A stretch of DNA of 32,000 nucleotides from Sorangium cellulosum So ce56 (GCF_000067165.1 NC_010162.1:8747989-8779988), one strand, 5' to 3'. Counted from the stretch's first letter, positions 12,140-21,748 are shown. Translations and numbers: made by a program. Notes: generated by a model not told the origin, from the sequence alone.

Positions 12140-13411
12140 CTACGCACGTGAACGAAGGTAGACTGGATGCCTTGCGGACCCGGGTTCGATTCCCGGCGCC
12201 TCCACCATGATTCCGCGCACTTGCGCACTTTCCGGACGATTTCCAGACGAAACACCACCCTCCCACAGCGAGAGAGGTAGCGGCGGGAAGACATCGCCGA
12301 ACCCCGCGCGGACGGCTTCAGCCTCGCGGATGTAGCCCTGCGTCGTCTGGAAACCGGCATGGCCTGCGCGCTGCATGATCTTGAGCGGGTCGTCCCCCCG
12401 GATGGCAAGCCAGGTGATGCCCGTGGCGCGGAGGTCGTGCCACGTCATGCTCTTCCGTGTCGCGTCCGCGGCGTAGAGCTCGCAGCGGTCCAGACGCGCC
12501 GTGGTCATGAGCCCGCGCAGGGCGCGCGCCAGGTGGCGATCGTCGGGGAGCTGGATGACGCGGCCCCGGCCGCCTGATTCGGCGTGCATGGCGCGCAGCA
12601 GGGGCATCAGGGCCGGCTCTATGGTGAAGCGGCGGGTCGTGCCCGTCTTCGTCGACTTGGCGCTGCCCTCGCGGTCCAGGCTGCGATGCACGTGGATGAT
12701 GCCGCGCTCGAGATCGACGTCATCCCAGGTCAGGGCGCGGAGCTCGCTCGCCCGCACGTAGAGGTAGGTCGCGAGCGCCACAGCGCGGCGCCACTCGATC
12801 GAGATGTTCGGGCTCGATACGAGCGGCAGGAACTCCGACGGATAGAGGTACGCCTTCGCCTTCTTGATGCCCCGGTCCGGCCCGCGCACCTCCGCGGCCG
12901 GATTGCTGGCGAGGACGCGCAGAGAGAGCGTCTTGGCGCTACAGGCGTCATCGAACAGCTTGGAGACGAGCCCCCAGGTGTTCACCGCGGTTTTCCACGA
13001 CTGCTCGCCGGCTCGCACCGAGCTATCGAGATGTTCGACGAACGCCTCGACATCACGCCGCGTCACGGCGGTTATCGGCTTGTCGCCCAGCTGAGGAAAC
13101 AGCCACTTCCGCAGGCGCCCGAGGTCGCCCGACGCAGAGGACAGGCCCCGCTCCTCTCGCGCCGCGGTCCAGCGCTCGACCCACGCGGCCACGGTCTCAC
13201 CCGCGGGAGCCGCTGCGGTGCGGCCGCGCGGCGGCCTCGTGGCGCCCTCGGCGCGGGCGGTCTCCGCGAGGCTCTTCGCGCGGTCGCGGGCGCGAGCCTC
13301 GGAGTAGCCGGCAGGGAGGCAGATCCACGGCCGCGAGCCGTCCTGCAAGGTGATGCGCGCGTCCCAGTGGTCGCCGTGGCGTTGAATCGTTCCGGTGCGA
13401 GGTCGGGGCAT
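12140..13411 (-). CDS. int: tyrosine recombinase / phage-type integrase (integrated-state isoform)
   Basis: 'YLYVRASELRALTWDDVDL' (box I Arg), 'TWHDLRATGITWLA' (HxxR) and 'AGHAGFQTTQGYI' (catalytic Tyr). The last 68 nt (12140-12207) are antisense to the tmRNA 3' end. Confidence 0.9.
   Translation of the reverse strand: MPRPRTGTIQRHGDHWDARITLQDGSRPWICLPAGYSEARARDRAKSLAETARAEGATRPPRGRTAAAPAGETVAAWVERWTAAREERGLSSASGDLGRLRKWLFPQLGDKPITAVTRRDVEAFVEHLDSSVRAGEQSWKTAVNTWGLVSKLFDDACSAKTLSLRVLASNPAAEVRGPDRGIKKAKAYLYPSEFLPLVSSPNISIEWRRAVALATYLYVRASELRALTWDDVDLERGIIHVHRSLDREGSAKSTKTGTTRRFTIEPALMPLLRAMHAESGGRGRVIQLPDDRHLARALRGLMTTARLDRCELYAADATRKSMTWHDLRATGITWLAIRGDDPLKIMQRAGHAGFQTTQGYIREAEAVRAGFGDVFPPLPLSLWEGGVSSGNRPESAQVRGIMVEAPGIEPGSARHPVYLRSRA
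12185..12207 (+). repeat. attL core (23-bp direct repeat, the tmRNA T-loop to CCA end)
   Basis: 'TTCGATTCCCGGCGCCTCCACCA' is identical to 21723-21745. Flanking bases differ on both sides. Confidence 0.85.
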
Positions 13412-13447
13412 GGGTCGGTGTCTCCTTCAGGGCGCGGCCGGCCCGGT

Positions 13448-14149
13448 CTACTTCTGCTTCGCCTCCCACGCGCGCAGGGCGCGCGCGAGGGCTGCCACCT
13501 TCTCCGGGGGCAACGGCGGCTTCGTGGCGCTCTGCGTGTGAAAGCGGCTGATCTGGGAACGCTCGACGCCGGAGAGCTTCGCGAGCTGGGCTTGGGTAAG
13601 GCCCCGCTCGAAACAGCGGGCCATGAGCTCGCGGACGTCGGTCTCGCCGATTTCGCCAGCGGGAGCGCGCGCGGGCGGAGCCGCGGGCGCGGGTTCTGCG
13701 GAAGGCTGGCGCAGCGTCGAGATCAAGCCCTTGATGACCGACGACCGCGACACCTTGTCCGCGAGGCCGGGCGGCGCAATGGCGCGCTGGCGCTCGACCT
13801 CTGCATCCACGGTCTCGACCTCTCCCGGGGTGAGCCGGACGTGGACCATGACACCGGCGACGGTGCTGCGGTCTTCCTTCGGGGGGCGGCCCATGCGTGC
13901 CATGCTCTTGATCCTTTCCTTCACGGCTTCGTCGACTTCTCGACGCTCTTCTCCGGAGACGATGCGAACGATCGCGCAGAACCGCGGCCAGGGCTGCGCG
14001 AGCGCCCACGCGCGGAAAGCGCCAGGCGGGTCCGCGTGCTTCAGGATCTTCTGGCAGAGCTCGCGGCTCGCCGGGTCGGGGTTCGGCTCGGCCAGAGCAT
14101 GCCGAACCGCTGCGCTACCCCATATCTTGCACGCGATGGAGAAACTCAC
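13448..14149 (-). CDS. DNA-binding protein (central 'GRPPK...VHVRLTPGE' RHH/MobC-like segment, C-terminal XRE-type HTH)
   Basis: 'LTQAQLAKLSGVERSQISRF' is an HTH. 'MGRPPKEDRSTVAGVMVHVRLTPGEVE' resembles RHH/MobC-type N-termini. The GTG start at 14149 overlaps the upstream stop (GTGA). An internal ATG start is possible. Confidence 0.6.
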   Translation of the reverse strand: MSFSIACKIWGSAAVRHALAEPNPDPASRELCQKILKHADPPGAFRAWALAQPWPRFCAIVRIVSGEERREVDEAVKERIKSMARMGRPPKEDRSTVAGVMVHVRLTPGEVETVDAEVERQRAIAPPGLADKVSRSSVIKGLISTLRQPSAEPAPAAPPARAPAGEIGETDVRELMARCFERGLTQAQLAKLSGVERSQISRFHTQSATKPPLPPEKVAALARALRAWEAKQK

Positions 14150-14850
14150 TCTCTCGACCTCGCGAGCACCTTTCGCACGGTTTCAGCCGCCCAGCTACCA
14201 CCCCGCTTCGTCCGATACCCCTCGTCGGTGAGCGTGGCTGCGATCTCGCGCAGCGAGAGGCCATCGGCGCGGAGCGCGAGGATCCGATCGACGGTCGCAG
14301 CCTCGTCCTGCACGCAGGCGATGATGCGCCGGCCGTCTGCATCGGCCTCCCCGGTGTGAACCCACCCGAGCGCCGCCCCGCCGAGCCGCACGCCATCGGC
14401 GCGAAGCTGGGCGAGCGCGTCACGCGTGCGCTCGGCGGTCGCTTCGCGCTCCCACTGCGAGACCGACGCAAGCACGTTCAGCACGAGGCGACCCGCGGCA
14501 GAGCGCGTGTCGATCGAATCGGCGACCGACAGGAGCGAGAAGCGATCGGCGAAGTACCCGGCGATCAGCGCGTCGAGGTCGCGCACGCTGCGCGTGAGCC
14601 GATCGAGCTTCACCACGAGCAGCGCGGAAGCCTGGCCAGCGTCGAGCATGCCGAGGGCGCGTTGCAGGCCGGGGCGGTCGAGCGTCTTGGCGCTGACGCC
14701 AGGGTCTTCGATGATGTCCACGAGGTCGAGATCCATGGCCGTCGCGTAGGCTTCGAGCTTCGTCCGCTGCGCCGCGAGGCTCACGCCGCCGTCCGCCTGA
14801 TGCTCGGTCGAGACCCGCACGTACCCGATCGCCCTCGTCCGCTCGCCCAT
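14146..14850 (-). CDS. small serine recombinase (resolvase/invertase family)
   Basis: 'AIGYVRVSTEHQ' (catalytic Ser), 'LLVVKLDRLTRS' and 'VLASVSQWEREATAERTRDAL'. ATG at 14850. The long N-terminal extension in the ORF track (to 15540) is Arg/Ser-rich noise that overlaps the RuvC-like gene. Confidence 0.85.
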   Translation of the reverse strand: MGERTRAIGYVRVSTEHQADGGVSLAAQRTKLEAYATAMDLDLVDIIEDPGVSAKTLDRPGLQRALGMLDAGQASALLVVKLDRLTRSVRDLDALIAGYFADRFSLLSVADSIDTRSAAGRLVLNVLASVSQWEREATAERTRDALAQLRADGVRLGGAALGWVHTGEADADGRRIIACVQDEAATVDRILALRADGLSLREIAATLTDEGYRTKRGGSWAAETVRKVLARSRE

Positions 14851-14881
14851 GTGTACATAATGTATCTCAATATGTATCCGG

Positions 14882-21018: not shown

Positions 21019-21118
21019 CTTATCGCAGCTGAATCGCTCAAGGCGCGTAAGCCCGAAGCGTGCGAATTCACGGATTGAAGAGGCTACGGTTGACAGCTGG
21101 GGTGAGGACTCGACGGAA

Positions 21119-21545
21119 CTATCCGCCGCGCCGGGCGCGCTCGGCGGCGAGGTCGACCACGCCGGCCGCGTCGGCCCCTGGCGCGCCGAGCAGACGCCCG
21201 ATGGTCTCGTGGGCGATGCGCGCCGCCTCCACGTCGCCCGCCGCGAGCGCCGCCCGAGCTGGCGCTACCCGCCGCGCCGGGCGCGCTCGGCGGCGAGGTC
21301 GACCACGCCGGCCGCGTCGGCCCCTGGCGCGCCGAGCAGACGCCCGATGGTCTCGTGGGCGATGCGCGCCGCCTCCACGTCGCCCGCCGCGAGCGCCGCC
21401 CGAGCTGGCGCTACCCGCCGCGCCGGGCGCGCTCGGCGGCGAGGTCGACCACGCCGGCCGCGTCGGCCCCTGGCGCGCCGAGCAGACGCCCGATGGTCTC
21501 GTGGGCGATGCGCGCCGCCTCCACGTCGCCCGCCGCGAGCGCCGC
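21119..21545. repeat. 146-bp tandem repeat, 2.9 copies
   Basis: Units start at 21119, 21265 and 21411. Copies 1 and 2 differ at a single base as far as I can see (ctaTcc versus ctaCcc). Each unit encodes, on the minus strand, 'ALAAGDVEAARIAHETIGRLLGAPGADAAGVVDLAAERARRGG*'. Confidence 0.95.
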
Positions 21546-21722
21546 TCTCATGCCTTCCGCCAGCTGGCCGAGGAGCACCGTCCGCGGGTCCTCCGGTTTC
21601 GTCCGGGATTCGTCCGGCTCACGAGGTTTCGCGCACTTAGCCGCCGTCGTCGGCACGCTTGCCGCTCCCGTCGCATGCGGAAACCTACGCGATCCCTGCG
21701 GATCCCTACCCTCGGCAGGCGT
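21411..21722 (-). other. displaced 3' coding segment of int (C-terminal tail of the excised-form integrase)
   Basis: In phase with the att core ('VEAPGIE') and open for 103 further codons ('TPAEGRDPQ...ERARRGG*'). The distal 43 codons are very GC3-rich (41/43). Confidence 0.55.
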
Positions 21723-21745
21723 TTCGATTCCCGGCGCCTCCACCA
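21723..21745 (+). repeat. attR core (second copy of the tmRNA 3' end)
   Basis: Identical 23 bp to 12185-12207. Followed directly by an intrinsic terminator. Confidence 0.85.
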
Positions 21746-21748
21746 AAA

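Follow-up and report, generated by a model that had tools for sequence, protein, structure and literature searches.

The switch of the Myxococcus phage Mx8 between two integrase forms, IntP and IntX, has so far counted as an oddity found in one or two phages of Myxococcus. A functional difference between such isoforms is shown for Mx8 only, whose prophage form, IntX, was reportedly found by Magrini et al. in 1999 to be less active, so that excision is limited; a similar principle has been reported for phage Mx9. In the fusellovirus SSV1, the integrase gene is split near the N-terminus, and two non-functional fragments are left. Here we describe a 9.5-kb island of Sorangium cellulosum So ce56, situated in a 32,000-nucleotide stretch of the genome (NC_010162.1:8747989-8779988; hereafter, the window). 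Most probably it is an integrative element in the 3' end of ssrA, the gene for transfer-messenger RNA (tmRNA), and its tyrosine integrase gene, int, spans the core of its own phage attachment site (attP).

The int gene of Mx8 contains attP; upon integration the gene acquires a new 3' end, and the behavior of the enzyme is altered (PMC6070905). In the paper describing Islander, Mx8 and SSV are the only cited cases of integrases extending across attP, and such an overlap is treated as an exception (PMC4383910). The initial annotation of the window had already named Mx8 as a precedent, and its account of that phage agrees with the literature (PMC6070905; PMC4383910). In SSV1-type viruses, int also extends over attP, and integration into a tRNA gene splits it (PMC4383910). 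In mycobacteriophage BPs and its relatives, attP is located in a regulatory gene, and integration shortens the C-terminus of the product and alters its behavior (PMC4557955).

The So ce56 island is closest to Mx8 in its layout. In both, attP lies in int downstream of the catalytic tyrosine, at the antisense T-arm and acceptor stem of a tRNA-type gene, and ∼100 C-terminal residues are traded for a short host-encoded peptide, an exchange that excision reverses in Mx8 and would reverse here (PMC6070905; PMC4383910). The host of Mx8 also belongs to the same phylum as So ce56 (Myxococcota). The So ce56 int is not of the SSV1 type, because the cut comes after the complete catalytic domain and the integrated open reading frame (ORF) keeps this domain whole. 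Neither is it of the BPs type: in BPs, a repressor gene is cut and its product loses an ssrA-like degradation tag, while here int is cut and its product loses a 55-residue domain, predicted to be folded and ending in ...ERARRGG. Like the islands defined by Islander, the So ce56 island has an intact target gene, a displaced 3' fragment of this gene in direct orientation, and an integrase gene between them at the target-side end (PMC4383910). Unlike here, in ordinary islands of that kind int ends before attP.

The island in ssrA

The tmRNA gene (11863..12207, plus strand) was identified by ARAGORN and matches Rfam family RF00023 over the full length (123.6 bits, E 3.7e-48). It is intact and encodes the tag peptide ANDNAYAVAA. 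This gene is the integration target and lies on the attL side of the island. Its last 23 nt (12185..12207, plus strand), which comprise the T-loop, the 3' strands of the T-stem and the acceptor stem, and CCA, form the attL core, TTCGATTCCCGGCGCCTCCACCA. The same 23 nt are repeated exactly and in direct orientation at 21723..21745 (plus strand), where they form the attR core, a displaced 3' fragment of the tmRNA gene. Even with up to three mismatches allowed, the core has two matches in the whole window, while none are expected by chance. The 9.5-kb island (12208..21745), delineated by the direct repeats, Pfam and PHROGs matches and the analysis of GC content at third codon positions (GC3), is flanked by these two copies.

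The core copy ending at 21745 is directly followed by a hairpin with a T-run, GACACGGC-GAAA-GCCGTGTC (21750..21775, plus strand; read from the sequence), and a similar hairpin occupies the equivalent place in a related island, L001, described below. The hairpin is probably the original ssrA terminator, split from its gene by the island. The intact tmRNA, the repeated 3' end and the distal terminator-like hairpin taken together are the hallmark of an island inserted in the 3' end of ssrA.

The integrase gene and its rejoined form

In the integrated state, the int ORF (12140..13411, minus strand) encodes an IntX-like form of 423 residues, 99% identical to a So ce56 protein annotated as integrase (P0001). 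Family PF00589 matches residues 203–364 (E 8.5e-14, 52.1 bits against a cut-off of 27.1), and the motifs HDLR...GH...QGY are all found, the catalytic tyrosine being residue 360, within QGYIRE. Residues 1–401 are encoded by the island (13411–12209), residue 402 straddles the boundary between the island and the core, and residues 403–423 are read from the antisense strand of the tmRNA gene. Codon 402 (ATG) occupies 12208–12206, and therefore the final 68 nt of int are antisense to the T-arm, acceptor stem and CCA of tmRNA. Tyr360 and the conserved GFGDVFPPLP segment (to approximately residue 383) are upstream of codon 402, so that all catalytic residues are kept upon integration. Judging by this sequence, the integrated 423-residue form should still be an active recombinase.

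At the far end of the island, the minus strand (21746–21411) reads L-VEAPGIE in the phase of int, followed by 103 codons to ...ERARRGG and the stop codon TAG at 21413–21411. When 13411..12208, one copy of the core and 21722..21411 are rejoined, an uninterrupted ORF of 512 codons results. Codons 402–409 of this ORF come from the 23-nt core, whose copies at the two ends of the island are read in one phase. Codon 402 is followed by 110 residues in the rejoined ORF and by 21 tmRNA-antisense residues in the integrated one. All this agrees with the initial annotation, in which int ran from 13411 to 12140, passing the island edge into the antisense tmRNA from Met402, with every coordinate correct. 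Translation likewise bore out its statement that the far-end core keeps the phase of int and opens into 103 codons with the stop at 21413–21411, and in-silico joining its estimate of ∼512 codons for the rejoined ORF against 423 for the integrated one. In the rejoined protein, we distinguish the linker (residues 410–454, encoded by 21588..21722, minus strand) and the tail domain (residues 455–512, encoded by 21414..21587, minus strand).

Homologous integrases

We searched for homologues with the rejoined 512-residue protein as the query and obtained 930 matches, of which the best 120 were used to count compositions. Twenty-seven of these 120 are uninterrupted proteins of 499–591 residues, with the tail at the C-terminus in 26 and near it in one, just as had been predicted for full-length related integrases when the island was first annotated. 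These long forms have a common layout: the integrase body, a peptide read from the antisense T-arm of a tRNA or tmRNA, a variable linker, and the conserved tail. The T-arm peptides are GIEP/GFEP, GIRT or RDSNP, that is, three frames of a GGATTCGAACC-type sequence. Most of the tails (22 of 27) are of the type PRAxLxAxL...AAGDxEAARVAHEAIGRLLG...VVDLAxERARR, and the remaining five are of a second type. The other 93 homologues have a median length of 446 residues, and in many of them the C-terminus is a tRNA or tmRNA read-through, for example, ...AGFEPA or ...VEAPGIEPGSARPTIHLRSRA.

In the protein database, the tail profile also matched 131 orphan ORFs of 44–128 residues, many of them in Sorangium genomes; in So ce56, at least three annotated hypothetical proteins match it. 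As gene callers would produce such ORFs from stranded tails, these orphan hypothetical proteins are probably stranded integrase tails, and they could be re-annotated. In addition, a scan of IMG/VR yielded five relatives, including a copy in the interior of a viral contig (L092), which is a 498-residue long form with a variant tail.

Integrated and free relatives

A scan of genomes, with one genome per species, yielded 80 loci, nearly all labelled Myxococcota or Deltaproteobacteria and mostly Polyangiaceae/Polyangiales. Sixty-five catalytic motifs were found there. In 37 loci, an antisense tRNA or tmRNA gene begins 39–78 codons past the catalytic tyrosine, and int reads into this gene in 36 of the 37 loci with a detectable target. 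There are 11 target identities: Ser, Glu, Asp, tmRNA, Ala, Lys, Leu, Val, Gly, Gln, and Pro.

Both island ends could be read in the window, in L001, and in five loci from the scan with islands short enough for the fetched DNA. L001 is an island in ssrA on a metagenome contig, with the int product 75% identical to that of So ce56, a 25-nt repeat and the far-end ORF in phase. The five scan loci are the So ceGT47 island (L006) and L018, both in tmRNA genes, the latter in another frame than the window, and islands in tRNA-Lys (L027), tRNA-Leu (L028) and tRNA-Ala (L080) genes, the last two with damaged int. In all seven islands, which represent four target genes and two tmRNA frames, the far-end tail is in phase with int through the core. 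Hence, the junction, earlier predicted to be in frame, is so in the window and in six further integrated islands.

In L028 (int near 9061-10383) and L080 (int near 10001-10700), int contains an in-frame stop or frameshifts, while the phase of the tail is kept; these appear to be decaying islands. The 3' end of tmRNA is read as VEAPGIEP in the window (12185-12207) and as WRRRESNP in L018 (294-315/7145-7166). Since the antisense T-arm is read in all three frames across the family, the core-encoded peptide is evidently unconstrained.

Several long forms are found in contigs that have no target gene. One of them, P0029, is encoded in the middle of a 45-kb contig (L003) that carries some phage-type genes (amidase, PD-(D/E)XK nuclease). 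In L003, int overlaps no tRNA gene, its ORF holds no more of a tRNA than a 3' fragment of ∼25 nt, and there is no second int in 21 kb. Two more, P0004 and P0011, are encoded in contigs of 8.1 kb and 9.6 kb (L086 and L088, respectively) with no tmRNA gene and no second integrase, and the int ORFs there hold only the last 27–28 nt of tmRNA. L086 also encodes prim-pol, a DnaB-type helicase, a short resolvase and RadC. L086 and L088 look like the attP state of ssrA-targeting relatives.

Coding signal and selection in the stranded tail

In RefSeq, the tail region (21414..21587) is annotated as an orphan hypothetical protein of 55 residues, and a protein, P0152, matches the tail. The open frame by itself is within chance expectation; its significance comes from the GC content at codon positions, the ratio of non-synonymous to synonymous substitution rates (dN/dS), and the homologues. 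From ∼21600 down to 21411, the GC content at codon positions 1/2/3 in the tail frame is ∼0.9/0.55/0.93, so that the tail shows the usual coding pattern of high-GC genes. Our recount gave G or C at the third position in 41 of the last 43 codons, the same figure as in the initial annotation. The linker has no such signature.

Over the last 56 codons, the window and L001 have 16 synonymous and two non-synonymous differences (dN/dS 0.04), and in the other two frames the ratio exceeds 1.7. The tail domain is under strong purifying selection. A hidden Markov model (HMM) of the tail matches the stranded tail with E 5.7e-29. We found no Pfam family for the tail, and a sequence-profile search of the PDB gave only weak, probably compositional matches to bS20 (E ∼1e-3).

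The end of the tail ORF lies in a 146-nt tandem repeat (21119..21545; 2.9 copies, 99% matches), a feature absent from the initial annotation. On the minus strand, its first copy is the real 3' end of the ORF, and the other two are untranslated duplicates past the stop. The unit duplicates the last ∼45 tail codons including the stop, and, 146 not being a multiple of three, the extra copies downstream of the stop are out of frame. Partial duplicates of the unit are present in L001 (∼1.5 copies) and L006 (at least two), which means that the duplication is old or recurrent. Arm-type sites and replication slippage are both possibilities for the role of this repeat. Apart from it, we found no convincing 10-mer common to the two flanks (int and tail) of attP as reconstructed for So ce56, L001 and L006.

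Predicted structure of the rejoined integrase

The rejoined integrase was modeled with AlphaFold2 from a 74-sequence alignment. The body of the protein, to approximately residue 383, has predicted local distance difference test (pLDDT) values above 90. In Foldseek, residues 1–383 match the Tn1549 integrase (6en2, E 1.8e-11) and the full-length lambda integrase (1z1b, E 5.9e-11, 380 aligned columns). The latter match suggests that the So ce56 integrase has an arm-binding-type N-terminal domain. The lambda and Tn1549 integrases share with it the fold and PF00589, but they lack a linker and an additional domain behind the C-terminal segment, and their genes do not span attP.

Residues 386–451, a stretch that includes the core-encoded peptide, have pLDDT below 50 and are predicted to be disordered. 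They are followed in the model by a helical hairpin (residues 455–472 and 476–490) and a short helix (503–510), with pLDDT 93–98 in the helices; the tail modeled alone has the same fold (pLDDT 92–98). In Foldseek, the tail model matched only generic helical hairpins with E above 1. By this model, the cut made by integration falls in a flexible linker that joins an already complete enzyme to an additional domain, and the core may therefore be read in any frame.

Proposed mechanism and comparison with Mx8

In the free circle, int would be one ORF of 512 codons. Its product would begin with a lambda-Int-like body, composed of an arm-binding-type N-terminus, a core-binding domain and a catalytic domain with Tyr360. 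Behind the body would come ∼40 residues, then eight residues encoded by the core (the antisense T-arm and acceptor of tmRNA), a disordered linker of ∼45 residues and a tail of ∼55 residues. A crossover in the 23-nt core at integration would sever the ORF within the linker, and, the crossover being inside the core, the integrated element encodes the 423-residue Int, in which the catalytic domain is complete and the last 21 residues are supplied by the host tmRNA gene. The tail would be stranded 9.5 kb away, behind the ssrA terminator, and excision would rejoin it to the body of int. By analogy with Mx8, we infer that the long form is the efficient integrase and that the short, prophage-type form has an altered or lower activity. 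The integration state would then feed back on the recombinase of the element itself and stabilize integration. With the core placed in a disordered linker, the encoded peptide seems to be unconstrained, which plausibly allows at least 11 tRNA and tmRNA targets and all three reading frames.

We also considered, as a tentative idea with the odds clearly against it, that the tail hairpin is a reporter of the integration state present on the Int of the free element alone. It would control directionality or synapsis by dimerizing, by binding a partner such as the 501-residue protein described below, or by substituting for an excisionase. Under the same idea, the core in the linker would be an evolved design for many targets in any frame, and the stranded tail would perhaps be made alone in lysogens and act in trans.

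The layout shared with Mx8 does not extend to the details. In the Mx8 genome, the int ORF encodes 533 residues and includes the antisense 3' end of tRNA-Asp ∼108 codons ahead of its stop codon. The BLASTP alignment of the two integrases is confined to their N-terminal halves (27% identity over 242 residues, E 3e-11), and in a tblastn search of a phage collection with the 512-residue protein Mx8 was not among the matching records listed. The targets also differ (ssrA in So ce56 and tRNA-Asp in Mx8), as do the elements, Mx8 being a 49.5-kb phage and the 9.5-kb So ce56 island having no match to phage structural proteins among the ORFs scanned. Upstream of int, So ce56 has a gene with an XRE-type helix-turn-helix (HTH), while Mx8 has uoi (MerR/Xis-like). 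The So ce56 element has an Mx8-like layout, but its integrase is a member of another family, which is far larger and has a tail domain of its own.

Other genes in and around the island

Besides int and its stranded tail, the island genes with family matches encode an XRE-type HTH protein, a short serine recombinase, a RuvC-like resolvase, an Arc-like protein and a sigma-factor-like protein. The gene upstream of int (13448-14149) matches XRE-type HTH families only; no match to Xis or MerR-type families was found in the island by the Pfam and PHROGs scans. The serine recombinase (14146-14832, minus strand; 228 residues) comprises a Resolvase domain and the first half of the Recombinase domain. 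We set aside the idea that it is a truncated pseudogene, as a 263-residue gene product with the same two domains is encoded in the free 8.1-kb contig L086 (2617-3408). The gene for the short serine recombinase is thus apparently part of the normal accessory equipment of such elements. The RuvC-like Holliday junction resolvase (14882-15430), the Arc-like repressor (17484-17732) and the sigma-factor-like protein (19027-19587), all on the minus strand, are weak PHROG matches.

An ORF of 501 residues (15583..17088, minus strand) contains a second copy of the tail domain at residues 380–443 (tail HMM, E 1.6e-11). It has no significant Pfam or PHROG match, DUF6074 scoring 18.5 bits, under the cut-off of 27.2 bits. 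Its homologue in the So ceGT47 island (L006), 57% identical, has the tail domain as well. Being present both in Int and in the 501-residue protein, the tail looks like a portable module of two island proteins.

Approximately 2.3 kb outside the island, there are degenerate copies of the tail repeat (...VGDVEAARLAHETIGHLLGAPGADAAGVV... and ...GVIDLAAESSRRGG*) at 23885-24462 (minus strand) and 24359-25113 (plus strand). They adjoin orf1 and orf2 of the IS66 family (TnpB_IS66, E 1e-32) and are probably a remnant of an older element of the same family, broken by the insertion sequence. Two blocks of low GC content (0.51–0.57 against ∼0.70), one in the island (20001-21000) and one just outside (22501-24000), have ORFs with no family match (19966-21018, plus strand, 350 residues; 22274-23590, minus strand, 438 residues) and probably are foreign cargo.

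Weight of the evidence and alternative explanations

We estimate at roughly 0.8 the probability that an integrative element has entered the 3' end of ssrA here and that its tyrosine integrase gene runs across its attP core. The gene architecture, its conservation across the family and the purifying selection on the tail are direct observations, and the homologues and the in-phase relatives support the proposal of the initial annotation that attP lies inside int and that integration swaps the Int C-terminus. Several points weigh against this interpretation. The seven in-phase islands amount to approximately five independent cases, as L001 and L006 are closely related to the So ce56 island, and the probability of five in-phase cases arising by chance is about 0.004 for the phase alone. 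Moreover, two of these five (L028 and L080) have damaged int. The linker evolves almost neutrally (dN/dS 0.74 between the window and L001 over 47 codons, open and with no indels), and the continuity of int is suggested by the lack of stops and indels and by the homologues rather than by conserved amino acids. The circular junction, the excision and the difference in activity between the isoforms are what we infer, the last by analogy with Mx8, as is the idea of the initial annotation that the two isoforms could bias the direction of recombination. In this respect, comparison of the Mx8 tail with the Sorangium tail profile by hhalign gave a probability of 0.5%, that is, no detectable similarity. 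As the tails are unlike, the functional analogy with Mx8 may not transfer. The remaining points of this kind bear on particular alternatives and are given with them.

The alternative that survives best, unlikely as we find it, is that the architecture is real, but the So ce56 island is a fossil that no longer excises, so that no toggling between the two forms of Int occurs today. The 146-nt triplication by the tail and the degenerate tail copies by the IS66 element do show decay or rearrangement nearby, int is damaged in the relatives L028 and L080, and the island has no excisionase gene recognizable in the Pfam and PHROGs scans. Still, both copies of the core are perfect, int is intact with its catalytic motifs, and the tail ORF is also intact, the duplication being downstream of its stop. 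Furthermore, the tails in So ceGT47 and in the metagenome contig are nearly identical to it, with mostly synonymous changes, which speaks for recent selection.

It is considerably less likely that the long forms in the databases come from tandem arrays, in which the shared core connects int of the distal island with the tail of the proximal one, and do not represent free attP. By geometry, tandem insertion at one tRNA or tmRNA gene would indeed place tail, core and int of two islands next to each other, in the order tail(2)-core-int(1), and int has no detectable tRNA or tmRNA gene in 25 of the 65 genomic loci with catalytic motifs. L086 and L088 have no terminal overlap, and no free-form contig could be shown to be circular. 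On the other hand, int of L003 lies midway along its 45-kb contig, where 21 kb contain no other int, and L086 and L088 have neither a second integrase nor a tRNA or tmRNA gene. Even tandem arrays would require the tail to be in phase, and so they do not conflict with the architecture itself.

We consider it improbable, more so than the tandem arrays, that the tail is an independent small gene (55–81 residues as annotated) located beside attR by chance, with its phase having no meaning. RefSeq and Glimmer do annotate a separate hypothetical protein here, the 131 orphan ORFs match the tail profile, and the tail domain has a second copy within a different protein of the island. A GTG codon that follows GGAGGA just before the domain in So ce56 could start a 55-residue tail product, so that the tail could be expressed independently in the integrated state, perhaps in addition to its use in Int, and the purifying selection was seen in copies that are all integrated. 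But GGAGGA is not kept in L001, there is no consistent start codon before the domain in L018, L027 and L028, and the ssrA terminator is immediately upstream of the tail ORF. Orphan ORFs are also what gene callers are expected to make of stranded tails. The tail is fused to a complete integrase in 27 homologues, including those from contigs with no target gene, and all seven integrated islands are in phase and open from the core to the tail.

Finally, at least 103 open codons follow 34% of the codon positions in the six frames of the window, but we reject the possibility that the open frame past the core is merely chance in GC-rich DNA, given the dN/dS values (0.04 in the tail frame, above 1.7 in each of the remaining frames), the tail HMM match and the fused homologues.

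Implications

The principle of an integrase gene spanning attP was already known from Mx8; what the island and its relatives add is that this design is typical of a whole family and that the tail is a conserved domain. The exchanged tail is strongly conserved, with a predicted fold, and can be defined for testing the control of integration versus excision. It also explains a class of orphan hypothetical proteins of 44–128 residues, many of them in Sorangium genomes, and gene annotation and island-finding tools should rejoin int across island ends. As Sorangium is a natural-product producer that is difficult genetically, these integrases may aid the development of integration vectors for it. 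For this genus and the related Polyangiales, the Mx8-type design is the normal state of a large integrase family, which uses at least 11 tRNA and tmRNA targets.

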